A stretch of DNA of 64,000 nucleotides, taken from the IMG/VR virus record IMGVR_UViG_3300020385_000005, positions 1-64,000 of that record. The stretch is one strand, 5' to 3'. Positions 2,769 through 19,501 of this stretch are shown here, piece by piece; positions within the stretch are counted from its first letter, which is position 1; every line of letters begins with the position of its first letter. The notes beneath the pieces are model-generated. The model did no database searches. It had not been told where the DNA came from and saw nothing but the letters and a program-made list of their open reading frames with translations. Source of the stretch: a virus. The position numbers and the translations under genes were made by a program.

Positions 2769-3209
2769 TTAAACGTTAGTACCATTAATGTCATTTTTAG
2801 TTACTCTGCGGTATGGGTAGCTTTTTGTTTTAATTTGAAAAACGTTTTTTGCAACGCTTTCAGTTGCTACGTTCACAGGAGCATCAGTAAATTCTTCTGA
2901 AATTTCACTTGATAGTTCATCTTCAGGGTTTTCTGGCACTCGAGGGTGCTCTTCTTCGAATTTATCAACAATTTGATCCATGTCAGTTTCAAAGTTTTTG
3001 AACTCTCTGATGCTTCGCGGAAAGAAGATCATCCCAATTGCTCTTACTCTTGAATGGGTTTTTTTTGTGTGGTGGATTTTTTCACCGATGTCGATGAGAT
3101 CTGGCCACACGTTTTCTTTATAAAATTTAGAAGTACGATCCCACATTTTAGGGATGATCTCTCTTTTTACGTACACTTCTTCAAGTGCGCTCAGTAAATC
3201 ATTTAGCAT
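2769..3209 (-). CDS. hypothetical protein (146 aa)
   Basis: ATG 3209 preceded by the hairpin RBS; acidic C-terminal half. Confidence 0.55.
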   Translation of the reverse strand: MLNDLLSALEEVYVKREIIPKMWDRTSKFYKENVWPDLIDIGEKIHHTKKTHSRVRAIGMIFFPRSIREFKNFETDMDQIVDKFEEEHPRVPENPEDELSSEISEEFTDAPVNVATESVAKNVFQIKTKSYPYRRVTKNDINGTNV

Positions 3210-3483
3210 TGTTGAAAGTCCTTTCGACTTTTTTTAATCTTTTTGTCCATTCTGCTGGACAGATCTGATAAGCGTAATCAAACCCATCTAGTACTGCTTC
3301 ATGGTTTGCTGAGATGGCCATATTGCATGTGCCATCCCACTCCTTTTGACATTCCTTGATTGTTTCTTCTAGGACTTTGATGGAGTCTTTGATGAAAGCA
3401 ATCTGCTGTTTGCATGTTGGCTCTGCTTGAGCGAACATTGGTAGTGTTAAAATAAATACAAATATAAGTGATAACGATTTCAT
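3199..3483 (-). CDS. small secreted protein (94 aa)
   Basis: Trimmed to ATG 3483 (AAAAGGAG upstream). Signal peptide MKSLSLIFVFILTLPMFAQA/EP; four Cys in the mature part. Confidence 0.55.
   Translation of the reverse strand: MKSLSLIFVFILTLPMFAQAEPTCKQQIAFIKDSIKVLEETIKECQKEWDGTCNMAISANHEAVLDGFDYAYQICPAEWTKRLKKVERTFNNAK
3216..3230 (-). promoter_or_regulatory. SD-in-loop hairpin (copy 3)
   Basis: mRNA sense AAGUC-GAAAG-GACUU, 5-bp stem with compensatory A-U pairs; ends 6 nt before AUG 3209. Confidence 0.55.
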
Positions 3484-3500
3484 TTTTAGTCTCCTTTTAT

Positions 3501-3563
3501 TTAAAGGAAAACAGCCATTGAAATAACGATTATACAAATCCTACAAAAGAGTGCTTCTTCCAT
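3501..3563 (-). CDS. possible 20-aa hydrophobic micro-ORF
   Basis: MEEALFCRICIIVISMAVFL. ATG lies 1 nt after the stop of 3565..3873 and the ORF ends just before the next RBS. Very short, so weak. Confidence 0.25.
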   Translation of the reverse strand: MEEALFCRICIIVISMAVFL

Positions 3564-3564
3564 T

Positions 3565-3873
3565 TTAAGCCTCCGTTGTTTCGGTTTGTGGTTTTTCTGT
3601 TACTTTTTCAGTTGTTTTTCCAGCATTTTTTATTTCAGTTCTCAACCCTGCACATACTGCTGTCCATGTATTTACAACAGTATTGCTTGTCTCTTTAGAC
3701 ATTAGTCCAAGAAACGTTAAGAAACCTAGGGGAATGACGACAATCATTAGAAACAGTTCTAATAACTCAATAATCGGGAACCATTTTACGATTGACGCAA
3801 GAATACCTACTGTTAGACCCATCCTGGCCCATGTAGGTAAGTTTTCGAAATCTTCTTTTACTTTATTTAGCAT
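3565..3873 (-). CDS. membrane protein (102 aa)
   Basis: Two hydrophobic helices (GLTVGILASIVKWFPIIELLELFLMIVVIPLGFLTFLGLM); AAAGGA RBS. Confidence 0.55.
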   Translation of the reverse strand: MLNKVKEDFENLPTWARMGLTVGILASIVKWFPIIELLELFLMIVVIPLGFLTFLGLMSKETSNTVVNTWTAVCAGLRTEIKNAGKTTEKVTEKPQTETTEA

Positions 3874-3951
3874 TTTTATATCCTTTTTAGATTAGGATTT
3901 ATTTTTGCTCAGTAAAGAGAGATTTTTAGCCTGGTTTTGTTAGTTAAAAGT

Positions 3952-4371
3952 TTAACGGTCCCCGTATGGGTTTCCATCTTCATCCAATATGCCTTCATCT
4001 GAGACTAGGTGCATATTGTTTTCAAGTCTTTCTGCTTGACGAATTTTTGACAACCGCATGAATTCATCTACATTTCTTGTCCCAAGGTAAACGAGTACTG
4101 ATTGGTACCCGTTATTCGAGAATCTTACGCATGTCCAGATCTCTTTTTCATGTGCTAACTCTACGATTGTAGCAGCTGCCATCAAAAAACCTTGCATGTG
4201 GCAATTGTCTTCTGGAAGCGCTGAGACGAATTGTCTCATTACTCCTGATTTCAATCTAACGCAGCTAACACCTTGCCATAAATAATGGATATAAAAATAC
4301 TCTTTTAAGTTTTCAGGGATTAGCTGGAATGCTTGTTGATGGATAGTTGGTACTCGGTTTTGATTTGGCAT
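3952..4371 (-). CDS. hypothetical protein (139 aa)
   Basis: ATG with GAAGGAGG upstream. Confidence 0.55.
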   Translation of the reverse strand: MPNQNRVPTIHQQAFQLIPENLKEYFYIHYLWQGVSCVRLKSGVMRQFVSALPEDNCHMQGFLMAAATIVELAHEKEIWTCVRFSNNGYQSVLVYLGTRNVDEFMRLSKIRQAERLENNMHLVSDEGILDEDGNPYGDR

Positions 4372-6166: not shown

Positions 6167-6646
6167 CTATAGGTATTCTGCTACACGTTCTGTGTAGCCG
6201 TCGTTGTGAAGAATTCTTTTTAGATAGCCTGGCCATTCTTTGACCTCGGCTACACGATGCGTACGTTTAACGAGAGCAAGCATTGCACGTCTCGTCTCAA
6301 CTATGTGTACAGCAGATTTGTTGCTGTCATCGTCGATGAGAATCGTGCCATTTGTCAGAAGAAACGCTATTCGGTGTCCGATATGTGTCTCTTTTATCAT
6401 CTTGTCAGAAGGCATAAAGAACTTTGGATTGTTCTTCTGCTTCATCATCTTAATGTACTTAAAGACACGTTTGCTTCCTGCATTTACAAAATCTTCTGTG
6501 TCGTGGAAGAACACATTATATGAAAATTCCGTAGACATTAGGATCGCTTCTGCGGGTTTTTTTATTAGCGCATAGAAACGATCTTCAAGAGAAGCATACT
6601 CGCGTTCACTTTTAGGTCGTCTGTTTCTTACTTTTTGCAAATGCAT
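6167..6646 (-). CDS. hypothetical protein (159 aa)
   Basis: The ORF-track start at 6667 is TTG. The first ATG at 6646 (MHLQKV...) has AGGTG upstream. Confidence 0.5.
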   Translation of the reverse strand: MHLQKVRNRRPKSEREYASLEDRFYALIKKPAEAILMSTEFSYNVFFHDTEDFVNAGSKRVFKYIKMMKQKNNPKFFMPSDKMIKETHIGHRIAFLLTNGTILIDDDSNKSAVHIVETRRAMLALVKRTHRVAEVKEWPGYLKRILHNDGYTERVAEYL

Positions 6647-7628: not shown

Positions 7629-8371
7629 TATTTGGTCTCCTTGTGATCCATCATCCAGCGAATTATGGTGATGGTGTTAAAAAAGCCGAGCGTCTTCAGT
7701 GTTTTTGAGCAGATTAGCTCATACTCTTGCCACTCGTCTTTCTTTTTTAGGGCGTGTCTCGCTAGTACGTTTTCAATTGTATTGATAGAAGAGATTTTGA
7801 TTGAGAATCCAGAGGAAATCAATCTTTCTTGCCCTTTTATCATACTCTCGCTACGTAATGGTAAGAGAAGTAGACTCCACTCTTCATCAGCCATACGAGC
7901 GGCTGATACGAGCTCTTTTTCATTCTCTTTGATATCACAACGTGGTTCTTCTGCAACTATTCTTTCAACGATAGGTGCTAAGAGAGCTTTCGCAGCTAAG
8001 AGTTTCCTAGCGTGTTTGTTGAGAAAAGCCTCTGGTGCTTTGGCTGCTGTTACTTTTGGCAGCAGTTCTCCAAGATACCATAATCCAAGCAGAGAGAAGA
8101 CTGTTGTAAACAGTCCCCATTGCCACCCACAATATGAACCCACCAAGAAACCATTCAACATGCTGAAGCCAGCATTTGCTAAATGGTTTGCCAAGGCACA
8201 TGTGCCTAATGATCTTGTGCCGCCATCGACGAACCTCTTAGCTTCTTCCGACAACTTGTTGCTGTCGGCGATGTTCATTGCGACCTCACCTCCGCTGAAG
8301 AGGAATGAGAGAGAGGATTGAAGGGTGAGAATTACTGAGGAAATGATTTTAAACATTTTTAGCTCTTTCAT
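7628..8371 (-). CDS. membrane-associated hypothetical protein (247 aa)
   Basis: Protein-like sequence with hydrophobic N-terminus and central helices. The antisense ORF 7665..8321 is Ser-rich junk. Start is uncertain (alternative ATG at 8356). Confidence 0.5.
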   Translation of the reverse strand: MKELKMFKIISSVILTLQSSLSFLFSGGEVAMNIADSNKLSEEAKRFVDGGTRSLGTCALANHLANAGFSMLNGFLVGSYCGWQWGLFTTVFSLLGLWYLGELLPKVTAAKAPEAFLNKHARKLLAAKALLAPIVERIVAEEPRCDIKENEKELVSAARMADEEWSLLLLPLRSESMIKGQERLISSGFSIKISSINTIENVLARHALKKKDEWQEYELICSKTLKTLGFFNTITIIRWMMDHKETK

Positions 8372-8544
8372 GGAGAATGTGTATTAAATAGATCTTTAAT
8401 ATAACAACTTTTAAAGTTTCGTCTTGTCAAACCTTCAAGTTGTTAATAATAAAGAAGAAAAAAGATTTTTTGAACGCAATAGCAAATCAGTTAATGATTT
8501 TCGCGCGCATTATTCTTTTTTTTGAGAACCTCTGCTATCAGCAG

Positions 8545-8975
8545 AACTGACATTGCCTGCACCCAACTACGAAGAAGTAGTTCTCATGAGGGGCTGCTGG
8601 AGAGGGAAGGGTTCGAACCTTCTATCTTATCTGCTTTAGATTGAGGTTTAGGACATGTGGCGCTAACCACATCTCAATCGATTTCTAACCATGCATACTT
8701 TCAATAACGTTAAGGCGTCCTACTTCCGTCACGTTGTTGACTCTTTGCACAGTTATCAAGTTTGCAGACAAACCACTATACCTGGATTAGTGATTCTCTC
8801 CCCATATACTGACCTAACGGAATGCAGAGGAGTCGAACCCCTGCAACTCGCGAACGAGCACCATCCTTTTTTCGAATATAAGCTCAGCAAAACTTATAAC
8901 GGCTTCAATAAAGAACTTGCTGGTTCTCTATTTCCACGGATCTTCCTAGAACACCTAATAGAAGTCGAATCTATT
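8545..8975 (-). ncRNA. ORF-free structured block with tRNA-like modules (unclassified)
   Basis: Minus strand contains a D-arm plus Cys-type anticodon-loop-like 5' part (8760-8803) and a T-arm GAAGG-UUCGAAC-CCUUC plus acceptor-like CCUCUCC-A (8598-8622). It also has an 8-bp T-loop hairpin (8823-8845), a UUCG hairpin (8847-8858), and a 7-bp long-range helix GAUUGAG/CUCAAUC. No complete cloverleaf can be drawn. Confidence 0.3.
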
Positions 8976-8977
8976 AA

Positions 8978-8994
8978 AGCCCCCGAAATGGGCT
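8978..8994 (-). terminator. weak hairpin 3' of 9011..9526
   Basis: AGCCC-AUUUCGG-GGGCU followed by UUUAAUAG. The T-run is poor. Confidence 0.3.
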
Positions 8995-9010
8995 AGGTGT
9001 CGTGTGTGGC

Positions 9011-9526
9011 TTAGAGCTTTTTGAGCTCGAGCCACTTGTTGAGGGGGCCTTTAGCGTTGTAAAACGCTTTAAGGTCCTGTTGGGACAGGCCTGCGACTTG
9101 GCGCAGGTGTTGATCCACTGATGACGAAACGTTTTCGTCGTCGTCAGCGCTCACTAGCGCTTCAAGGGGAAGGTCGAAGACCCTCACCGGAGAGTGGTTG
9201 ACAATCTCAAACCATCCGCCATTATTATGGTAGATGGAGACAGAGACGCAGTCGTTCTCGTCAATACAACGTTTGACGTTCCCGTGTTGGAGCGGGTCGC
9301 CTCCGACAGAGAACAACCCCTCGTGAGGAAGAATGAGCTCAACAAATTCCCTTGGGAATCGGTGGGCGAAGTCTATTATTAGACCCACCCACATCCCCTT
9401 GAGACCTAAGGCCTCGGGAGCAAGGTAAGATATGAGATTGAGTGACAGGTGTTTTTCCTCATCTACCGAGGAGACTCTCTTCATGAGGATTTTGTAGATG
9501 GTGATGATTGCTTGACGTTTTGTCAT
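9011..9526 (-). CDS. hypothetical protein (171 aa)
   Basis: The ORF-track start at 9562 is GTG; the first ATG at 9526 (MTKRQ...) is used here. Composition is G+C-richer than the early block. Confidence 0.5.
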   Translation of the reverse strand: MTKRQAIITIYKILMKRVSSVDEEKHLSLNLISYLAPEALGLKGMWVGLIIDFAHRFPREFVELILPHEGLFSVGGDPLQHGNVKRCIDENDCVSVSIYHNNGGWFEIVNHSPVRVFDLPLEALVSADDDENVSSSVDQHLRQVAGLSQQDLKAFYNAKGPLNKWLELKKL

Positions 9527-9900
9527 GACTTCTTCTTTCTGTGGCGTGTTAGAATGGCGCACTTCTTAAAAGGGCGCGCACATTCATTATTTTCCCTCTA
9601 TAAGGAACAAAACTAAAGCATACTTTAACATTTGTGCTTGTAGCTTAAAGAGACAAAACTACTCCACTAAACAACAAGTGAGCAAGATATGTCTCGCAAC
9701 AGAGAGATAGAGGAACTGTAGCAGGTTCACTGCTGAAAGGGGCTTTTAGAGCCCCTATTGTCTGGTTTTGACTTGTTTAGGGTAGGTATGAGGGTGGTCT
9801 GAGGTGGTGTTAGGGTAGGACTTGACTAGGTGCACCCTGATTTTATCTCTTTATAACTATAAATCCTTATATATTAGGTATTTATGTTACTTTTAACTTA

Positions 9901-9942
9901 ATTATAACAAGGAAAGACAAATAAATCGTCACGTCTCGTCAC
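9901..9942 (-). promoter_or_regulatory. extended -10 promoter candidate plus GTGACGAG motif (copy A)
   Basis: On the minus strand TGTTATAAT (9909-9901) is a perfect TGnTATAAT. GTGACGAGACGTGACG (9942-9927) lies upstream, immediately after the terminator at 9951-9982. Confidence 0.45.
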
Positions 9943-9950
9943 TTTTCAGC

Positions 9951-9982
9951 TAAAAAAAGAGTGTTTACCCCCTAGGGAAACT
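9951..9982 (-). terminator. intrinsic terminator closing the ORF-free unit
   Basis: Minus strand: GUUUCCC-UAGG-GGG(U)AAAC, then ACUC and a run of 7 U (plus-strand A run 9952-9958). Confidence 0.5.
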
Positions 9983-11468
9983 AGTCTCCTGTGCTTTAAA
10001 CGCACTTTTTGAGACTCGGAGGAGTTCTACCATATGGGAACTCTACCCCGGCCTACATCACTTCGATATAGGTCTTGATGGGATTGGTGTGTACTCTTTG
10101 CGCTTTCACGCCGAGGAGACCAGTACGCTGATCATTATCCCCCTCCGCCTTTAAGTGAACTTCACATACGTATATGTGTGGGGTGGCTTCACCATGACGG
10201 CAACCATTATCCCCTAAACTCACAATGATGGGCTCGAACCACCAAATGCAAAGGCAAGAGTTGTAGCTCTTGATACGCCTGGTCCTCACATATCTACAAA
10301 TATGCAACTTCCATTTGCTCCTCCCTCTGCACGCCGAAACCGGACTGTGCATATATCTCCAGTAATAAGGAGAATGAATAAGCTAAAGCAGAACTTTAAC
10401 ATATTAATTCACAGTATTACCGCGTCCCGCAAAGGGGATTTCAGGTGGCAAGTACTTACTACTTTGACTAGACGCATGCATCTAGGCTTTTCGCTTTCTT
10501 TGCCACCATATCTCATTCTTCACCAGAAGAGATTCACCGTTTATTTCCATTATCACTCCCCCGCTAAGGTTCGCTTACTGGATCATCGGTTTTGCATTTT
10601 CCCACTCCCGCTAAGGAGCTTCCATGCCAGGGCCATTTTCATTTAGGCTACCCTTGGGTTAGTTCTTCAACAAACGAATTGTTGAAGATATTCTTATAAT
10701 GAATGCATTCACTAATTTGGGGACTTTCCTTCCCCGAGAAATTCTTTATTGACTTACTTACCATGCCTGATAATAGCCACTGTATTTTGACCTGCTGACA
10801 TGAGGCGCATATGGGTTTGTTTTTTCTACAAACCGCGCACACCCCTTGTCTAAGGGTACTGGTTTTATCTCCAGCGACATAAGTTGCGACCTTATGCCAG
10901 TAACCCGCTTACCATTTCTCATTGGTATCCTTTGGAACATGAACTTATCATTCATTTCCGCAGGTAAGACCCGAAGGTCTAAGCGAGCACTATGCTTTTC
11001 TTTACGAAGGCGCATCTGGCTTCCGTTGAAAATTCTAATGTTCTTTTTTTTAAGTGTTTAGAAAATCACTGGGCCCAGCGTTAGCTGTCTTGATGAGAAA
11101 AGTGTTTCGTTCCCCTAAAGGACATCACTAATTAAAGCGATGCTAGCAGAGAGAAGCTCCACTAGACTCATCAGCCACGTCAACCCCAAAGGGCTTCAGC
11201 AGGACACTACTCAATTGATTTAACTGGCGACATTACGTCCGTTCATCAATTAAGATTTTGCCGACTTTTTTATGATAAAAGTCTAAATCATATGTAATAT
11301 TTTTAAGCCTGCTACATAACATTATGGCTTCCATTTTAAAGACTTGGATGTCTTGACCTTTTATTTCGCAGTGTGGTGGCGCGCCGCCATCATTCCACTC
11401 TATCTGCTTCTACACAGGTCTTCTCTTCATTTATATAGACCTCAAGAGAATAAGGCCTGAGATTATTA
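9983..11468 (-). ncRNA. candidate large structured ncRNA (unclassified, about 1.5 kb)
   Basis: There is no credible ORF. The block is dense in hairpins: a T-loop hairpin (10226-10244), c(UUCG)g (10967-10980), a 9-bp perfect hairpin (10665-10687) and a GC hairpin (11374-11389). A 14-mer is duplicated at 10554-10569 and 10603-10616. The block is bracketed by a motif and a terminator. Confidence 0.4.
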
Positions 11469-11486
11469 CGTCTCGTCTCGTCACAC
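11469..11486 (-). promoter_or_regulatory. GTGACGAG motif (copy B)
   Basis: Minus strand: GUGUGACGAGACGAGACG followed by TAATAAT and an AT-rich tract, at the head of the ORF-free unit. Confidence 0.35.
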
Positions 11487-11563
11487 CTTTCGGTTAACGA
11501 ATTTGAGAAACACCGATGTAGCTATATTGCTAATTACGGTGTTCTCGCGAACAGAACGAGTGA

Positions 11564-12169
11564 TTACTTCTTCTTCGGAGGCTTGACGGGATCTTCTACC
11601 TGGGGAGGTTGGATTGCTAGTCCAACACTCTCTGCCGCTACCCAGCTAATACCGCGGTCTTGCGACACGAGTGTACCAACGGGCAACATAGAAGATCCAT
11701 CATGAGGCGCCGCAGCACTTGTACTCATGTCCCACACATACCACGAAGGCTGAGCGGGAGGTTGAATTGGAGCCGCTACAGGAGCTTGTACTGGAGTACT
11801 AGCCGCAGCCGCAGCCATCTCTTGTCCTCGGATAAAACCGAGCTGTTGGTTGAGTTGTTGAGTCTCCAACGACAAGGCAGAGATTTTATACTCTGCAGCT
11901 GCATCAAGATCGTTTAGCTTCTTGATGTGCTTAGCACGCAAATTCAAGACCAGCGTCGTACCCTCCCCAACCAAATCACTCACCGCGACTGCATCCACCG
12001 GATCGACGACGGCACCTGCGCCGCCTATACCCTGCAAATTCTTCGAGACAAGTTTTTGACCCTTGAAGATCTTTGCCAAACGCTGTGTCTCCGACAACAG
12101 CGCTACTTCCTCCGCCAACTCCTGAAGCTTCTTCTCAATCTGTTCACTGTTGTTCAATTGGTATAGCAT
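11564..12169 (-). CDS. coiled-coil / Ala-Pro-rich protein (201 aa)
   Basis: AGGAGG RBS. N-terminal heptad-like region; C-terminal PVQAPVAAPIQPPAQP and a KPPKKK tail. Confidence 0.6.
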   Translation of the reverse strand: MLYQLNNSEQIEKKLQELAEEVALLSETQRLAKIFKGQKLVSKNLQGIGGAGAVVDPVDAVAVSDLVGEGTTLVLNLRAKHIKKLNDLDAAAEYKISALSLETQQLNQQLGFIRGQEMAAAAASTPVQAPVAAPIQPPAQPSWYVWDMSTSAAAPHDGSSMLPVGTLVSQDRGISWVAAESVGLAIQPPQVEDPVKPPKKK

Positions 12170-12280: not shown

Positions 12281-12298
12281 ATCACCTCGTCACACACA
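12281..12298 (-). promoter_or_regulatory. GTGACGAG motif (copy C)
   Basis: Minus strand: GUGUGUGACGAGGUGATAATAT followed by an AT-rich leader of the 12169 gene. Confidence 0.35.
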
Positions 12299-12973: not shown

Positions 12974-15900
12974 TTAAGCCTTGAAGCCGTTGTAAGCCAT
13001 AATGAAGTGCTTCATAGTTTCAACGTCCCATTCAGGGTTCACTGGAGTATTGACTCCCAACAGAGTTGTATCCACTCCGTAGGTTTTGGTGATCTGCCCA
13101 AAAAGCTTTCTCACCGAACTTACAGATTGGTTACGCACTGAGTACATCATTCGAGCACGCATATCCTCACCATCACCGTTGTCGTCATCAGGCACCTCAT
13201 TAGCAATACCAACCAAACAGAAGAGCAAAGAAGGTGACAGAGTCATTAAGTACGACATTCCTCTCCAACTATCTGGATGATTCACCAACGCATCCAACCC
13301 CTGAATCGATGCATTCAGTGGACTCGGAAGTGTAACTCCATTGTCGCCAGTGATTTCCGTCTTAAAGACACTTCTTATACTGCCATCATAGCCTGGGCTG
13401 GCATTTTCATACGCACCATTAGCAACCCAGAGCTCAAAATCGCCGTGAAACAACGAATCTTTAGCTCTGGTTTGCTTGTTTTCCTCAATCTGAGCAGCTC
13501 CCAAAGCGCTATGCCATTGCATTGAAGAGCCTCGACCTTTAAGCTTTTCATCCTTGAATATGCCGACTTTCACATTGTCAAAAGCAGCTTTCATGAAATC
13601 AAACACCTCAGCAGGTGCTTGTCCACGAGATTGTTGCTTATCACCACAACCTGCCATTGTAAAGCCATAGTAGCGATACATTTGACTTGGCAATGCCTTG
13701 CTGTCCTTCAGATCCGAAGCAAACAATTTTGGCGCTTTTGATTTGGCACCGTAGTAAGTTGGCATCCATACCGTCTTAGTCAGCTGCATCTCATAAAGAA
13801 GTTGCGCTCTGTCTCCGTCTTCCATTTCTCTGAAGTTCGGCACATCAATACTGTCTTTGTAATCTAAATCAATTACAATTGAGTGAGGATATGTCGTCAT
13901 GAAGAACTCCTGGACTACGATCACAGAATCGCGAACGTCACCCGCATCAATAGGTGCATGCAAATGATAAGGTCGGAACCAATTAGAATCATCCAACCCT
14001 AATGTAGCGCGACAAGTAGCGCTATCTTCAAAGTCGTAGTGAAATGTTTTGCAATCAGACTGCGGGTTTTTGAATGTCCATAGTCCGTATGCCAAGAACA
14101 CGTGATCGGCAGTAGTCACATGACCAACACCGCAACGGAATTGGGCTTGAAGCCACTGTATAGCGTCAAATTCTCCGAAAGTGCAGACAGCCATTTGGTA
14201 CATTGGAGAATCAATAAAGATATAACCCCAATCAGTTGCTACGGTAGTATCCATGTAACACCGTGCGTCTTTGTCCTGGCGTGTCACTCCGAGACGAGGA
14301 ACCTGTGTCAAAAACTCCAAGTTATGCCCACTCATTAAAGCTTCATGTGCTACGGCAAGTTTGCAATCCTCTGGCACTGGAAACTCAATCACTGACCGAA
14401 CAGACTCTACGCCCTCTTCATCTACTTCAAAGATTCCTCCACGAACGATCTCATCGAACTGGTTGTTAACCATGTTCATGTCCATAATATCGTCTTTGAC
14501 AATGACTTTGTTGGCGTACTCCACCAAGCGTCCAACTTGCACAATTGGGCTGGCGTAAGCCTTAAAGCCTGCTAGTAAAGCGCTTCGGTTTTCACGATAA
14601 AATGCGAACACCTCTTCCGCTGTATTAAGACTCAGCAAGCCGTAAGTCGTTTTAGCCTCGTTTTGGATCCATGTCGATAGGTCTGCACCTAGGATCTTTG
14701 CGATATCGTCAACAAGCGACTCCCCATAGGTAGCCTTCTCAACAAGCTCTAACACTCGATCAGTGCTATCTTGACGGTTATCACTTCGCTCCATATCTTC
14801 GTAAGCTTCCTCAAGCGCTCCGAAGTACTCTGAGGCGATCCACTCAGTGATCTTACCAGTAAGGTCCTCGCTCTCGGTAGCTGCAACATGATACAGTTCT
14901 GCCTTGGAGACATTAGCAAGAGACTGGCTTGCAATCAAGAATTCTTGCACGCTCTCTAAAGAGCAGACCTTTTGCGCTGCTTTGTATTGCTGATGCAATG
15001 TGATCATCTCTGATTTATTGCGACCTTGCAACATGGGAGCATCCTCCCCTTCGAATTGGGTGTCTGCCCACTGCTTGAACGCAGGATAATTACCCATGAT
15101 ATCGATGAGGAACTCGCAGTCCTTAGTCTTCACCAATTCAGACAAGAAGTCTACACCTGCTTCCAAGTCGTTAACCTCTCTCTTGCCCATACTGTCAATA
15201 GCACGGATAGCCAAGATCATCATGCCTCCAAGAGCATCCATCTTATCTTCATTAGACAGAGCTCTTACACTTAGAGCGTTACGCCAGGTTCTAGCGAACT
15301 GACGCAAATACTTTAATTGATCTGACTCAATCGAGAGGAATGAATTTGAACCAAGAGCAGCGCGTAGATATTGTTTCATATCCGAGCCAGATGACACTTG
15401 ATCTATCTGAGTCTTTTCAGACTGAGATTTCGCTTGTGCTGCGTCAATAGCTTTATCAATATAAGCAAAGTACATTGCTCTCATGATTTGTTCTGCTTTC
15501 CAACCATCGAAGTACGGTATATACGCCTTGTTATCTACTGCTTGAGAGACAAATTCCGCGAATCTAGACTCACTTAACATGAATTCAGGTTTCATGAAAT
15601 CACTCATGCCCTTACATTCAATGGAGCAAACATCTTCATAAATGGCTTTGATTCTTGCTCGCATAGAAGAAAACACTCCTGGAGCTTGAGTGTTGTCTTT
15701 CATGTAACCAAGCTTTTGATAGCTTGATACCATCTTTGGCCAAACCCAATAGTACTCTACTTGCTGTGCCGTAACAGGGGACAAACCATATGAAGTTCTG
15801 CGGTTGTTAAACCATTTTGCCAACTCTTCCCAATTTGCCTTAGGCACCTTAGTGCTGCAGTCAAATAGGTCCTGCAGCTCTGACATATCTCCAAAGGTAA

Positions 15901-18900
15901 GGTATGGTAGCCCCATATTTAGAGCTGACACAGTCCAAGCCGCATGGTTGAACAGACCGCCATTGTCCCACATAGGGGTACGCAGTGATGCTGCTCTGCG
16001 GTCTTTCGACCATACCATCAACGGTACTTGCTCATCAGCATCTTCCCATGTCTCCAAATCCATATTGCGATACTGATCGAAGGTGACACCACGCATTCCG
16101 TAGATTGGGAAGTGATTTGGACAGTTAACCACTTTGCTACCAGGATGCTTAGCGGCAATTACTTTTGCCTCTGATTCAGTAACATTTGCAGCATGACAAG
16201 TTTTTCCGTCAACTACGACCCACTGCTTTCCGTCAATATATTTGCCTGGTAGGATCCAACCATCATTGCTGTACTCACCCTCATACCAGTATTCCACTGA
16301 ATGAGTGACACGCTCGTACTTTTGAAGGTCGATACCTGTTTGCTGAAGCGCATACAGGAAGTCCATGTATTTACGTGCCATTGGATTCATAGGGTGGTAA
16401 CCACGATCGGTGTGTCCCCATGTGTGGAAATTCAATGGAGCTGCTGCTGAAAGCGTTGGCCCACCTACATTATCTTGTCCAGGGCTGTTACCTGGTGCAT
16501 TCAAGAAGCGCTGAACCTTACGCAGAAGGTCTTTGTTACCAGCCTTAGCTGCCTCATAGGCTTCTTTTACCCCACCTTCCTTGGTGATGATTGGATCAAA
16601 AGCATTCACTACAAATGCTTTTGACTGCTCTTTCGCCGGAAGAACGCTAGGGTGCTTTTTCTCAATGTTTTTCGCCAAAGCAACCAACAACGGGTTATAG
16701 CTGAGCATATTTCTATCCCCATCGTTATCACCGCACACAGCTTCTTGCAATGTCGTATCGACGATGATGCTGCCTTCGGCTACACTTGGTAGCAGCGCTC
16801 GAAGGAACATAAGCACATTGTCTGCATCACTACCATGGCGAGCTTGTACCTTCTCAATGAATCGTACCGCTTCTGCATTCTTCGACAATCCAGTTCCACG
16901 GGTTGAGAATTTACCCATCACTGTACCAAGATCACTCTTGTCCTCTGCCATGTTGTACGCATCAAGAAGTTCAGCAATAAAACCAATGTCCAGCACCTTG
17001 GGACAACGAACTGTATCGTGCCCCTGATTAGGTGTCCTTCCGAAGAAGGCATGTGTTCGCCATTTATTACCTTGAAGGCGATCAATGGCAACCTCTTGAC
17101 CTAAATCAATCATTTGTATATAGCGGCTTTCCGCTTTCAACCCGAAACCACTGCTGATGCGCTCCGTTTGCTTTTTGCCCATCAATTTCATAAGGGCCAG
17201 AGCTTTTTGAGCTTGGTTAATGCTATTTGTTGCACCATCAACCCCATTGAGTCGCTCAGCAAAAGCTGACACTAGTTTATTCTCACTGTCGAGGATGCGT
17301 TTAAACATCTTACGCAGTTGTTGTGCAGCCAAACCACCTTCAGCTAGAATTTGCTTAACAAATTCTTCATCCAGAAGTTGTGTGACCTGCCAACCCAACG
17401 AGATCTTGGCTGTGTCCATAGGAGCGTCGAGCGTAATAGCCCAATTATAAATATCGATGCCTTGCAGCCCCTCGAACTTTAAGCCAGTCTTCGGGAACTT
17501 CGTTTTGTTGCCCTTGTTCTGGTCTGCGTCCAGGAATTGGCACACGATATACGTCGCACCATTAACAACGAACGCATACTGTAACATACACGCTTTCTTT
17601 TCGATGTCTACCAAGTAGCGAGCGAGACCTTTCTTGTGAGCGATGACTCGATCAACGAGATCCTGGAAGCTGGTGAAGTCTCCATCTTTTCTCACTTTGA
17701 CGAGTGCATCAGCAGTTGCGTTACCAACACCATCCATTGACATTAACATTGCTTTATCAGCGCTATTAATGTTCTGTAATGGCGTTGTCTTCTTCAAGCG
17801 TTTGAGAGTTGCCTTGCGACCTTTGTCCACTTGCTTATCATAGGAGTAGTTGTAAGCAGTCCAAGATCCATCCTCCAACTGCATACCAACAAATTTGGCA
17901 GCTGTCGACAAACCCTTAAACAGTCCTTTTGAAGCGCCTTCACGCCCTAAGCCAATAGTTCTGGCACGGTTCTGGATCGCTGTCATTAAGCCTGCGGTGA
18001 AGATGGTGCCGCCATCATTACCCTTCCAGCCAAACTGTGAGAGGTAACCTGAAAGCGTAGGAATACCATGTGGCAGTTCCGCTTGGTTAGGGGTTGTTAT
18101 GGCAGATCTAGCATAGCCACGCTGCTCAACTGCGTTCTTGAACATCTCATCCATTAATGCAATGAATGCATCACATAGGTCTGTGCCCAATTTCACAGCA
18201 AATCCTCGACATATGCTCACATATCCTGAGTCAAGGAGAATATCTGCGACATTCTTCATGAGTTCTTTGCTGTTAATGTCGTCGATTTCGTACAAGATCG
18301 CATTATCACCAGATATTTCCAAGCTAAGATCCGCTAAGATCTTCTCAACTGTGGTGTTGAATGATGCGAGGAAGCGACCTGCGCCACCCTTCATGGTCAG
18401 TCTAGTAGCTGTACCTTTGACCTCTTTGTCGTCACTGTGTGACGAATTCCCTGCAGAGGTGTTTGGCGTGCCTTTCTTGCTCTTACCGAAGCGGATGCAT
18501 GGTAAGATGTTGTATCCTGTGGATGCCATCAGGGCACGGATGTCATCTTGTAACAAGCTCTTCGCTCCGAGCGCTTTTTTCTCACGCTGGGTGTCAAGCA
18601 TATTGGTCGCGATAGGAGTAACCATCGACACATTCAACAAGTTACCAAGGTTAGATTTGGCAAATCGTGAGATCACCTTCTCGAGAAGACTTGCGCCATT
18701 CTCTGATGTGATTTCGAAATTGAAATCGTCGAAATACTCTACGGTTACGTCTGCGATTTCTGCAGATTTCGTAGCCGCTTTTCGTTCAGCTTTAGCTTTC
18801 GCCTTAGCCGCCTTTCGTTCAGCTTTAGCTTTGCGAGCCTCAGCCTTTACATGACTCGGACATAATGAATATTTCATAAGTCCTCCTTTCTTTGTGTTAA

Positions 18901-19501
18901 GAGTGCGTAACATAGCGCGACTCTTTTGTTTGAGTGTGTTGTTGTGTTCACGACGAGCCGCAGCCTTAGCCTTTCTAGCTTCAGCCTTGGCTTTATTCGC
19001 TGCCAAGCGTGTCTTACGGGCCTCTTCTCGAGCCTCTTTGCGAGCTTCTTTATGAGCTGCTTTACGGGCCTCGATAGCTTCTGCTTCTGCTTGCTCTTCA
19101 ACTTTGCGAGCTTCAGCCTCTGCTGCTTCAAAGTCAATCTCTTCGCCAGTAAATAGGCGGTATGTATACTCACCTTGTTTCACTGGAGTGGTCTTCGATA
19201 AGAACGTCTCCAGTTTTCGTTTGAGTATCCGCGATGTCTCTGGACGGCTTGCGAGAGTGGTCCATACCATCTCTCTGTAAGCTTGTGGTACGTGACCACA
19301 GGTAGCGACTGGGAGGCGACCTTGTCGTTTCTTGGCCATAGTATTTAGGGCCTTGAAGACCAAGTAATTGAGTGTAGTGTTGTTTTGCATGGCAAAACCT
19401 CTCTGTGTTTGACTGTGAGCGATTGTTGTGTTGAGCCCACAGTTGGTTGTAGAAATTAAGCCCATGAAAAGGGCAAAGAATGTGTTTAGTAAAATACGCA
19501 T
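12974..19501 (-). CDS. giant protein (2175 aa) with beta-prime-like double-psi beta-barrel motif; candidate single-chain RNA polymerase
   Basis: FFGRTPNQGHD (about 17015-17045) and AVCGDNDGDRNMLSYNPL (DNDGD = 16715-16729) resemble NRAPTLH and LVCxAxNADFDGDQMAVHVPL of RNAP beta-prime. There is a ComEA-like HhH (about 17645-17745), KAEARKAKA repeats, and a hydrophobic N-terminus. Confidence 0.5.
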   Translation of the reverse strand: MRILLNTFFALFMGLISTTNCGLNTTIAHSQTQRGFAMQNNTTLNYLVFKALNTMAKKRQGRLPVATCGHVPQAYREMVWTTLASRPETSRILKRKLETFLSKTTPVKQGEYTYRLFTGEEIDFEAAEAEARKVEEQAEAEAIEARKAAHKEARKEAREEARKTRLAANKAKAEARKAKAAARREHNNTLKQKSRAMLRTLNTKKGGLMKYSLCPSHVKAEARKAKAERKAAKAKAKAERKAATKSAEIADVTVEYFDDFNFEITSENGASLLEKVISRFAKSNLGNLLNVSMVTPIATNMLDTQREKKALGAKSLLQDDIRALMASTGYNILPCIRFGKSKKGTPNTSAGNSSHSDDKEVKGTATRLTMKGGAGRFLASFNTTVEKILADLSLEISGDNAILYEIDDINSKELMKNVADILLDSGYVSICRGFAVKLGTDLCDAFIALMDEMFKNAVEQRGYARSAITTPNQAELPHGIPTLSGYLSQFGWKGNDGGTIFTAGLMTAIQNRARTIGLGREGASKGLFKGLSTAAKFVGMQLEDGSWTAYNYSYDKQVDKGRKATLKRLKKTTPLQNINSADKAMLMSMDGVGNATADALVKVRKDGDFTSFQDLVDRVIAHKKGLARYLVDIEKKACMLQYAFVVNGATYIVCQFLDADQNKGNKTKFPKTGLKFEGLQGIDIYNWAITLDAPMDTAKISLGWQVTQLLDEEFVKQILAEGGLAAQQLRKMFKRILDSENKLVSAFAERLNGVDGATNSINQAQKALALMKLMGKKQTERISSGFGLKAESRYIQMIDLGQEVAIDRLQGNKWRTHAFFGRTPNQGHDTVRCPKVLDIGFIAELLDAYNMAEDKSDLGTVMGKFSTRGTGLSKNAEAVRFIEKVQARHGSDADNVLMFLRALLPSVAEGSIIVDTTLQEAVCGDNDGDRNMLSYNPLLVALAKNIEKKHPSVLPAKEQSKAFVVNAFDPIITKEGGVKEAYEAAKAGNKDLLRKVQRFLNAPGNSPGQDNVGGPTLSAAAPLNFHTWGHTDRGYHPMNPMARKYMDFLYALQQTGIDLQKYERVTHSVEYWYEGEYSNDGWILPGKYIDGKQWVVVDGKTCHAANVTESEAKVIAAKHPGSKVVNCPNHFPIYGMRGVTFDQYRNMDLETWEDADEQVPLMVWSKDRRAASLRTPMWDNGGLFNHAAWTVSALNMGLPYLTFGDMSELQDLFDCSTKVPKANWEELAKWFNNRRTSYGLSPVTAQQVEYYWVWPKMVSSYQKLGYMKDNTQAPGVFSSMRARIKAIYEDVCSIECKGMSDFMKPEFMLSESRFAEFVSQAVDNKAYIPYFDGWKAEQIMRAMYFAYIDKAIDAAQAKSQSEKTQIDQVSSGSDMKQYLRAALGSNSFLSIESDQLKYLRQFARTWRNALSVRALSNEDKMDALGGMMILAIRAIDSMGKREVNDLEAGVDFLSELVKTKDCEFLIDIMGNYPAFKQWADTQFEGEDAPMLQGRNKSEMITLHQQYKAAQKVCSLESVQEFLIASQSLANVSKAELYHVAATESEDLTGKITEWIASEYFGALEEAYEDMERSDNRQDSTDRVLELVEKATYGESLVDDIAKILGADLSTWIQNEAKTTYGLLSLNTAEEVFAFYRENRSALLAGFKAYASPIVQVGRLVEYANKVIVKDDIMDMNMVNNQFDEIVRGGIFEVDEEGVESVRSVIEFPVPEDCKLAVAHEALMSGHNLEFLTQVPRLGVTRQDKDARCYMDTTVATDWGYIFIDSPMYQMAVCTFGEFDAIQWLQAQFRCGVGHVTTADHVFLAYGLWTFKNPQSDCKTFHYDFEDSATCRATLGLDDSNWFRPYHLHAPIDAGDVRDSVIVVQEFFMTTYPHSIVIDLDYKDSIDVPNFREMEDGDRAQLLYEMQLTKTVWMPTYYGAKSKAPKLFASDLKDSKALPSQMYRYYGFTMAGCGDKQQSRGQAPAEVFDFMKAAFDNVKVGIFKDEKLKGRGSSMQWHSALGAAQIEENKQTRAKDSLFHGDFELWVANGAYENASPGYDGSIRSVFKTEITGDNGVTLPSPLNASIQGLDALVNHPDSWRGMSYLMTLSPSLLFCLVGIANEVPDDDNGDGEDMRARMMYSVRNQSVSSVRKLFGQITKTYGVDTTLLGVNTPVNPEWDVETMKHFIMAYNGFKA
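18775..18832 (-). repeat. 33-nt tandem duplication inside the giant gene
   Basis: CCGC(T/C)TTTCGTTCAGCTTTAGCTTT occurs at 18775-18799 and 18808-18832 and encodes KAKAERKAA units. Confidence 0.7.

Follow-up and report, generated by a model that had tools for sequence, protein, structure and literature searches.

A candidate ribozyme-capped structured RNA unit with exchangeable cargo in an uncultured marine phage

Type III hammerhead ribozymes (RF00008) have a core of GUC, CUGAUGA and GAAA, the junction pairs A15.1-U16.1 and G10.1-C11.1, and three helices that meet at this core, with stem III open; multiple hammerheads that flank units in phage genomes, in an intergenic setting, and stems II of only two pairs have been documented (Perreault et al., 2011; PMC3088659). 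The GOLLD and ROOL RNAs are large (0.6-0.8 kb and more), structured, protein-free and phage-borne, and are encoded near tRNA genes in DNA devoid of open reading frames (ORFs) (PMC12286853), and the circularising hammerhead RNAs, namely retrozymes and viroid-like RNAs, join a hammerhead to non-coding structured cargo (PMC4918200; PMC7761336). Our study reports on an ORF-free block at about 9951-11505 of IMGVR_UViG_3300020385_000005, of which positions 1 to 64,000 were analysed; this stretch of 64,000 nucleotides (nt) is referred to as the window, and L-numbers denote the relative loci or contigs used for comparison. Read on the minus strand, the block comprises a 5' box, a leader, a hammerhead, a structured cargo and a 3' module.

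The hammerhead of this block shares with the type III class the core, both junction pairs, the three helices, the open stem III and the two-pair stem II, and with the phage hammerheads an intergenic setting and, in the relatives, several copies per genome. It differs from the known type III ribozymes in that stem II encloses three covarying hairpins, stem I carries a conserved UGAA/UGAC internal loop, the Rfam score falls far below threshold, and variant copies with A9U or a swapped U15.1-A16.1 pair occur in the relatives; unlike the known phage hammerheads, it heads a long ORF-free RNA instead of flanking genes. The likeness to GOLLD and ROOL extends to the tRNAs found nearby in L018, L078 and L083. 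In contrast to those RNAs, the block has no sequence or structure match to them, its cargo is mosaic and swappable rather than of one conserved architecture, and a predicted self-cleaving ribozyme lies at its 5' end; the cargo is not a GOLLD or ROOL member and resembles them only in kind. As in retrozymes, the cargos of L018, L076 and L078 are flanked by two hammerhead-type motifs. Unlike retrozymes and viroid-like RNAs, the window has a single ribozyme, so that no unit-length circle could be excised, and the block is DNA-encoded in a tailed phage and lacks a reverse transcriptase or replicase. To our knowledge, a head-cargo-tail cassette with alternative payloads is undescribed in the literature searched.

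We consider it probable that the block is a dedicated non-coding unit, producing a long structured RNA with a ribozyme cap and a payload cargo. By comparing the sequences of related loci we demonstrate that the block and its boundaries are conserved, that the minus strand encodes RNA structure with covariation, and that the sequence and structure of a hammerhead are present. A preliminary description of the window had proposed a discrete minus-strand non-coding unit and a large structured RNA outside the known classes. The former is borne out by the conservation of both boundaries in about ten lineages, and the latter is supported by minus-strand covariation, strand asymmetry of the fold and an empty Rfam result. 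We would add one refinement to this picture: as the RNA is modular and mosaic, it may consist of modules that are strung together and processed, and not of a single ornate fold like that of GOLLD or ROOL.

A hammerhead variant at the head of the unit

The ribozyme, which the preliminary description had missed, runs from the 5' strand of stem III (AGUGU) through C17 (11203), stem I, CUGAUGA, stem II and GAAA to the 3' strand of stem III (ACACU). An alignment shows an invariant GUC ... CUGAUGAG ... CGAAAC, and the module was parsed by hand in nine lineages and verified by script. The consensus of the class is C3 U4 G5 A6 N7 G8 A9 and G12 A13 A14, with N-U-H as the cleavage triplet. The core elements, GUC (11205-11203), CUGAUGA (11174-11168) and GAAA, are invariant in all nine except at N7, a free position at which L017 has CUGAAGA, a change that the consensus permits; the U16.1-A15.1 and G10.1-C11.1 pairs are likewise invariant. 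The three helices are supported by covariation at 16 of 28 pair positions, distributed over stems I and III and hairpins a, b and c, with only 4 of 224 cells non-standard. Stem II consists of two pairs (GU/AC) closing the junction of these three hairpins (~50 nt); the L076 ribozyme has an ordinary hairpin as stem II. The conserved internal loop of stem I and the three stem II hairpins could supply a tertiary contact between the two stems; minimum-free-energy folds show complementarity of the stem I tip to hairpin c but demonstrate no specific contact. Minimum-free-energy folding of the ribozyme alone did not recover the three-way junction, and the ribozyme fold thus rests on the comparison between lineages; an alignment of the raw ribozyme sequences with MAFFT and RNAalifold misaligned stem I and hairpins a and b and was set aside.

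A family covariance model was built from L017, L078, L079, L081 and L084 only, with the window excluded and two long loops trimmed for MAFFT. This model finds window 11213-11096 with 77.3 bits (E 1.7e-20), the next match in the 64 kb scoring 12 bits, and recovers the ribozyme in every other lineage. It also detects extra copies after the giant gene that precedes the unit (L083, L017 and L074) and within the cargo of relatives; no second hammerhead was found in the window. The sequence and structural features that define the class make the element a hammerhead, but its score lies below the Rfam threshold; a new architectural variant is the description that fits best.

Other hammerhead-type elements accompany the unit in related phages. 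The copies within the cargo that carry A9U (Table 1) are conserved with covarying stems and so are natural core variants or inactive structural copies; those of L081 and L084 combine GAAU with A at 16.1, which amounts to a swapped junction pair, U15.1-A16.1. Hammerheads are seen in the intergenic regions upstream of the unit in L017 (7362-7432) and L074 (3392-3466), and L083 has a canonical-looking one just after the giant gene. Relatives also share a hammerhead-like motif, CUGAYGA-AGAGAKC...GMUCUCU-...-GGAC...GUC-GAAACCA, with covarying hairpins and extra helices between stem II and GAAA. Attempts to fit this motif, CUGAYGA...GUCGAAAC ('HH2'), to a canonical hammerhead failed, and we leave it unclassified; the window lacks it and shows a deletion near 10410.

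A non-coding, structured cargo exchanged between lineages

The preliminary description had called the block ORF-free, and the five ORFs that it listed were reproduced exactly; none is usable, and they gain stops in L018 or L023. Across window 9563-11563 each minus-strand frame contains 34-58 stops of all three kinds, and since TAA, TAG and TGA are all frequent in every one of the six frames, no stop-codon reassignment rescues a gene. An alignment with L074 (82% identity over 1166 nt) contains 180 substitutions with phase counts of 63/63/54, and thus no codon periodicity, together with 17 indels (six of 1 nt, six of 2 nt, and others of 5, 7, 7, 16 and 17 nt), none of which is a multiple of three. 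Neither a conserved frame nor third-position bias nor in-frame indels were found, and a frameshift-tolerant comparison, which the preliminary description had suggested as a check, recovered no gene. Small proteins in the block are ruled out by the interrupting stops, the phase counts and the frame-breaking indels. The block is non-coding.

The block folds better than expected by chance, with a single-sequence fold z-score of -5.9 for a 1000-nt piece and of -1.3 for a coding control of equal length. When aligned sequences were folded against column-shuffled controls, the minus strand scored z = -8.4 and the plus strand z = -4.6, the values for a second block being -4.8 and -1.9; this strand asymmetry is due to invariant G-U pairs. 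Among five sequences spanning window 10400-10860, 26 of 89 consensus pairs change on both sides, compared with 4-7 in slid controls, and 90% of cells are paired as against ~40%. Extending the set to six lineages and window 10400-10990 gives 31 of 99 pairs, where the slid controls give 6-11, and 92% paired cells, where they give ~43%. Two conserved long-range helices are predicted, joining 10942-10939 to 10523-10520 and 10906-10903 to 10659-10656. The structural hallmarks listed in the preliminary description fared unequally: the UUCG hairpin, the two UAGC-loop hairpins and the GGCGCGCC hairpin are conserved with covariation, but the 9-bp and T-loop hairpins are lineage-specific, and the segment at 10087-10399 that holds the latter is present in L074 only (~95% identity). 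As a part of a tRNA or a member of a known family, the T-loop-like hairpin is ruled out by ARAGORN and Rfam.

The cargos fall into two families without detectable similarity, A (the window, L023, L074, L018, L076 and L078) and B (L071, L079, L081 and L084). Family B, too, is free of ORFs; its indels are out of frame and its fold z-scores are -6 to -7. Within family A whole segments have been inserted, deleted or replaced: L017 and L076 contain an insertion of ~530 nt, and window 10363-10214 is swapped for unrelated sequence in L023, which is otherwise 96-100% identical. A stretch of ~410 nt (window 11146-10737) is ~100% identical to L018 4985-5395, in a phage whose giant protein is 24% identical to that of the window, and L023, the closest relative of the window, is more diverged in this stretch than L018 is. 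This near-identity with L018, coupled with the divergence of L023, is a sign that co-occurring phages have recently recombined here; exchange therefore accounts for part of the apparent 'hyper-conservation'. The alignments thus demonstrate that cargo has been swapped between lineages.

Comparison with known RNAs left the cargo unmatched. With the GOLLD, ROOL, HEARO and OLE models nothing was matched in the window or its relatives, whether at the gathering score or with E allowed to reach 10, and neither Rfam nor ARAGORN placed a group I or II intron, tmRNA, RNase P or tRNA within 9500-11700; the preliminary description had named most of these families for an Rfam search. Among functional candidates, a CsrA-type sponge is ruled out as GGA motifs are not enriched, an antisense regulator of other window genes is ruled out as complementarity is no higher than in shuffled controls, and no paralogous modules were found elsewhere in the window.

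Ends of the unit and its genomic setting

The conserved 5' box is almost invariant in L017, L018, L070 and L074, and its GAGAC core is found in 8 of 9 lineages. It is presumed to be a promoter, an operator or the 5' boundary of the unit; no sigma-70 match was found there. Every motif listed in the preliminary description was found in place, and the weight that it gave to GTGACGAG needs qualification: taken alone the motif is marginal (three copies were found, and 3 of 100 shuffles reach three), but it belongs to this ~39-nt box, which is conserved in relatives. Tandem GAGAC/GTGAC pentamers precede several units of the minus-strand arm and are conserved in relatives; they could act as phage-specific promoters or operators. 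Some relatives have a GUCUC downstream, with which the last pentamer of the box forms a hairpin.

Between the box and the ribozyme the window has a non-coding leader, homologous to those of L071, L079 and L084, whose long hairpin (11254-11210) directly adjoins the ribozyme. Its stem at 11389-11377 covaries, reading UGGC/GCCA, UUGGC/GCCAA, UAGC/GCUA or CAGC/GCUG in the alignment. Six relatives have a second type of leader with a conserved micro-ORF of 17-22 amino acids behind a Shine-Dalgarno sequence; the peptide consensus is MTY[WY][VI]D[EDK]RGVVH..NP[RK], with synonymous changes such as CGT to AGA, and the window lacks this micro-ORF.

The 3' module is present in 9 of 9 lineages compared, with both cargo families, and 7 of its 26 pairs change on both sides, compared with 0-4 in slid controls. 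It is presumed to form the 3' end of the RNA. The preliminary description had placed a hairpin terminator here, and its U7 tract is indeed conserved in relatives, but the composite hairpin is weak, with an AGGAG/CUCUU helix that encloses an inner hairpin, and a terminator scan did not flag the site; a rho-independent terminator calls for a G+C-rich stem of at least 5 pairs directly ahead of the U-tract. In all lineages the U-tract is followed by the box of the next unit. Conservation extends to the 420-nt spacer behind the unit (window 9527-9950), with 83% identity in L084 over 368 nt; the spacer contains the extended -10, a C-rich unstructured stretch and a hairpin with a U-run at ~9756-9735, and could be a second small RNA or the long 5' untranslated region of the gene for a 171-amino-acid protein. 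Directly after the unit, L018 has a tRNA-like sequence (6519-6585) that scores 37 bits with the Rfam tRNA model, has an abnormally short anticodon loop and is not called by ARAGORN.

Table 1. Coordinates of features of the unit and its surroundings; positions are those of the window unless a relative is named.
Feature	Position	Strand	Remarks
Tandem GAGAC/GTGAC pentamer boxes	12286-12293, 11470-11485, 9926-9942, ~6283-6301, ~8415-8428	minus	precede several units of the arm
Conserved 5' box	11467..11505	minus	CAAAyUCGUUAACyGAAAGGUrUGACGAGACGAGACGUA, tandem GAGAC pentamers at end
GTGACGAG	11477-11484 and 9935-9942	minus	motif check
Leader 'type i'	11209..11466	minus	hairpins 11389-11377 (UGGC-GGCGC-GCCA), 11284-11263 and long 11254-11210
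Hairpin on GGCGCGCC	11377-11389	minus	position confirmed
Type III hammerhead ribozyme	11101..11208 (11208-11101)	minus	absent from the preliminary description
Predicted self-cleavage site GUC/C	between C11203 and C11202	minus	position from hammerhead consensus
Cargo family A core, densely paired	10400..11100	minus	common to L023, L074, L018, L076/L070/L017 and L078
Family A core hairpins	10980-10967 (UUCG loop), 10927-10910, 10898-10876, 10840-10805, 10712-10699, 10654-10629	minus	
Family A core hairpins (continued)	10627-10594 enclosing 10619-10604 (UAGC loop), 10569-10560 (UAGC loop), 10508-10443, 10424-10410	minus	
Hairpin (9-bp)	10665-10687	minus	position confirmed
Duplicated CCUUAGCGGG(A/G)GUG	10554-10569 and 10603-10616	minus	motif check
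Lineage-specific cargo segment	10087..10399	minus	contains T-loop-like hairpin 10244-10226
Conserved 3' module	9951..10086	minus	hairpins 10050-10017, 10005-9991 (GUGC...GCAC), composite 9990-9957, U7 9958-9952
U7	9952-9958	minus	motif check
Downstream boundary	9901..9942	minus	GAGAC box of next unit 9942-9926 and extended -10 9909-9901; box after U-tract in all lineages
Extended -10 TGTTATAAT	9901-9909 (9909-9901)	minus	motif check
In-cargo hammerhead-type modules, CYGAUGU (A9U)	L076 3904-3978; L078 4503-4577; L081 4151-4226; L084 4187-4261; L017 9858-9932		
CUGAYGA...GUCGAAAC motif ('HH2')	L018 5690-5795; L076 4940-5060, 5485-5600; L078 5512-5630, 5996-6113; L017 10898-11017		
Micro-ORF	L018 4688-4747; L017 9175-9231; L076 3263-3319; L078 3616-3672; L081 3173-3232; L074 4111-4179		
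ORF-poor gaps, minus-strand arm	531-1312; 1749-2769 (tRNA-Lys 2314-2385); 3209-3952; 8371-9011		examples

The window derives from a ~159-kb contig of an uncultured marine phage, sampled by Tara Oceans and found in other ocean metagenomes. Terminase, portal, capsid and sheath genes occupy its plus-strand arm, and the block is located in the minus-strand arm, downstream of the genes for a 2175-amino-acid protein, a Pro-rich protein and a 201-amino-acid protein and upstream of those for the 171-amino-acid protein and a CNNM-like membrane protein. The order of giant gene, small genes, an ORF-free gap of 2-4 kb and CNNM-like gene is constant in 9 of 10 lineages compared (L017, L018, L070/76, L071, L074, L078, L079, L081 and L084), and the ORF-free DNA at the locus spans 1.5-3.9 kb across phages. 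The tenth lineage, L083, is without a long non-coding unit and has genes and two tRNAs at that position, in addition to its hammerhead after the giant gene (L083 3989-4061 and 6723-6963). In the giant protein (window 12974-19501, minus strand) a signal-like N-terminus is accompanied by a Lys/Ala-rich region and by helix-hairpin-helix and GDNDGDRN motifs; the protein is a syntenic marker of the phage group, with 24-60% identity among relatives, and nothing informative was found for it in Pfam, PHROGs, NCBIfam or the PDB sequences. The tight packing of neighbouring genes described earlier is not uniform, as several gaps of 300-1000 nt interrupt the minus-strand arm; across window 1-23000 there are more such gaps without ORFs of at least 120 amino acids, which may hold other non-coding elements. 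The G+C content of 0.434 is elevated, as the preliminary description had it, relative to a mean of 0.39 for the window and to 0.38-0.39 for the spacers, but it equals the mean of the minus-strand arm (0.428) and is below that of the flanking genes (0.50-0.52).

Relatives were gathered by several routes. Contigs with identical flanking proteins (L001-L016) are 100% identical in DNA and hence uninformative. The giant protein led to L017 and L070; exact RNA motifs led to L018/L019 in IMG/VR and L023 in metagenomes; the CNNM-like protein, the most productive route, led to L071-L084. In IMG/VR the RNA-motif scans gave only the L018/L019 lineage, a profile scan with the giant protein returned the same two contigs, and the flanking small proteins used as queries found no matches. 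The metagenome scan yielded one additional variant, L023, amid 44 chance matches. No similar DNA was found among GenBank phages, and the motif was found in no bacterial genome searched.

A proposed mechanism and its competitors

Our comparative data suggest a model for the activity of this unit. It sits in the minus-strand, presumably early, arm, and transcription would enter from the GAGAC-repeat box or read through from the upstream 201-amino-acid gene. The hammerhead would then fold and cut itself after C11203, freeing an RNA of 1.25 kb (11202 to ~9952) from the upstream message; hammerhead cleavage yields a 2',3'-cyclic phosphate and a 5'-OH, and this 3' product would begin with the latter. 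RNases that depend on the 5' end generally act poorly on such a terminus. The freed RNA would comprise the ribozyme body as its 5'-OH cap, a highly paired cargo of ~1 kb and the 3' hairpin module with its U-tract. The cargo would be the functional payload, acting as RNA, and head and tail would form a conserved processing and stabilising frame into which different lineages have recombined unrelated structured cargos. More tentatively, and as a possibility that falls short of probable, we propose that the locus represents a new RNA 'cassette' in which the hammerhead head and the conserved tail frame swappable payloads of 1-2.5 kb, belonging to at least two unrelated families and exchanged between distant phages. 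If so, the payloads would be new large functional RNA classes, for example GOLLD/ROOL-like RNA-only assemblies or host-defence decoys, and would owe a protected 5'-OH end to the ribozyme.

Several observations weigh against the reading of the block as a ribozyme-capped structured RNA. The compensatory counts are inflated, as the structures tested were predicted from the same alignments, and only ~5-6 independent lineages represent each cargo family; the slid and shuffled controls show that the covariation signal is large despite this bias. Most of the supported helices are local, and with only two long-range helices, both short, 'one large fold' is unproven. Even with E allowed to reach 10, the Rfam hammerhead models match nothing in the window, and eight relatives have none at the gathering score; the L018 copy reaches 17.8 bits (E 2.3) with Hammerhead_3, for which the gathering score is 48.5. 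The alignment of that copy is in the same register as the hand parse, and its low score is attributable to long insertions in stems I and II. A 20-nt insertion lies inside the CUGANGA strand of L071, and several in-cargo copies in relatives carry CYGAUGU (A9U) cores, so that cleavage may not be required everywhere. The 3' end has no canonical intrinsic terminator, and transcription of the unit, its direction and its 3' end are points that we infer from the conserved layout. The timing of transcription, self-cleavage itself, protection by the 5'-OH end and the role of the cargo are put forward here as predictions.

The main rival to this model is that the block is an 'RNA island', a string of independent small modules (ribozymes, protein-binding hairpins and small RNAs) that are co-transcribed and processed apart. 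Modules are gained, lost and replaced independently, as seen in the insertion of L017 and L076, the window deletion at the second CUGAYGA...GUCGAAAC of the relatives and the replacement in L023; relatives hold two to four hammerhead-type modules in the region, and hardly any covarying helix spans 100 nt or more. With a single ribozyme in the window, however, nothing is known that would cut the cargo apart, two long-range helices are conserved, and head and tail are always retained together, and we regard this reading as possible but doubtful. A more modest role for the hammerhead would be to trim the upstream mRNA, that of the 201-amino-acid gene or of the micro-ORF in relatives, with the remainder an unimportant spacer or untranslated region. 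A role in cutting polycistronic transcripts has been proposed for hammerheads of phages (PMC3088659), no terminator separates the 201-amino-acid gene from the block, and the micro-ORF with its Shine-Dalgarno sequence lies upstream of the hammerhead in six relatives. We nevertheless hold such a role to be improbable, as a neutral spacer would not retain 92% pairing with 31 compensatory pairs, show a fold z-score of -8.4, conserve the 3' module in all lineages or be kept by a phage as an ORF-free stretch of 1.5-3.9 kb.

Two further explanations are unlikely. Mosaic exchange between phages at the locus and the repeated GAGAC boxes that flank the block would suit a role of the block as DNA, be it an origin of replication, a packaging site or a hotspot of recombination, with hairpins in single-stranded DNA. 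The hammerhead core with its covarying helices is, by contrast, an RNA-specific motif, and the fold is strongly strand-asymmetric owing to invariant G-U pairs; GC skew does not turn at the locus, the block has no internal iterons or tandem repeats, and a search for similar sequence elsewhere in the window was empty. Such a role is therefore very unlikely. That the block is the remnant of a decayed protein gene seems the least credible of all these readings: gene callers do predict an ORF of 84-85 amino acids in it, but this is interrupted by stops in L018 and L023, codon periodicity is absent, the indels break the frame, the ORF-free state has been kept in ~10 lineages and in two unrelated cargo families, and GenBank phages hold no similar DNA.

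Large structured RNAs of phages, such as GOLLD and ROOL, are rare, and the locus adds two ORF-free, covariation-supported families of ~1 kb or more. It ties these families to a ribozyme that is expected to define their 5' end, which provides a direct experimental handle. The unusual hammerhead, with a two-pair stem II around three hairpins, and its natural core variants would be useful for work on ribozyme structure and function. The head-cargo-tail layout, together with near-identical segments in phages whose proteins are 24% identical, suggests that phages trade RNA payloads in the way that they trade protein genes.

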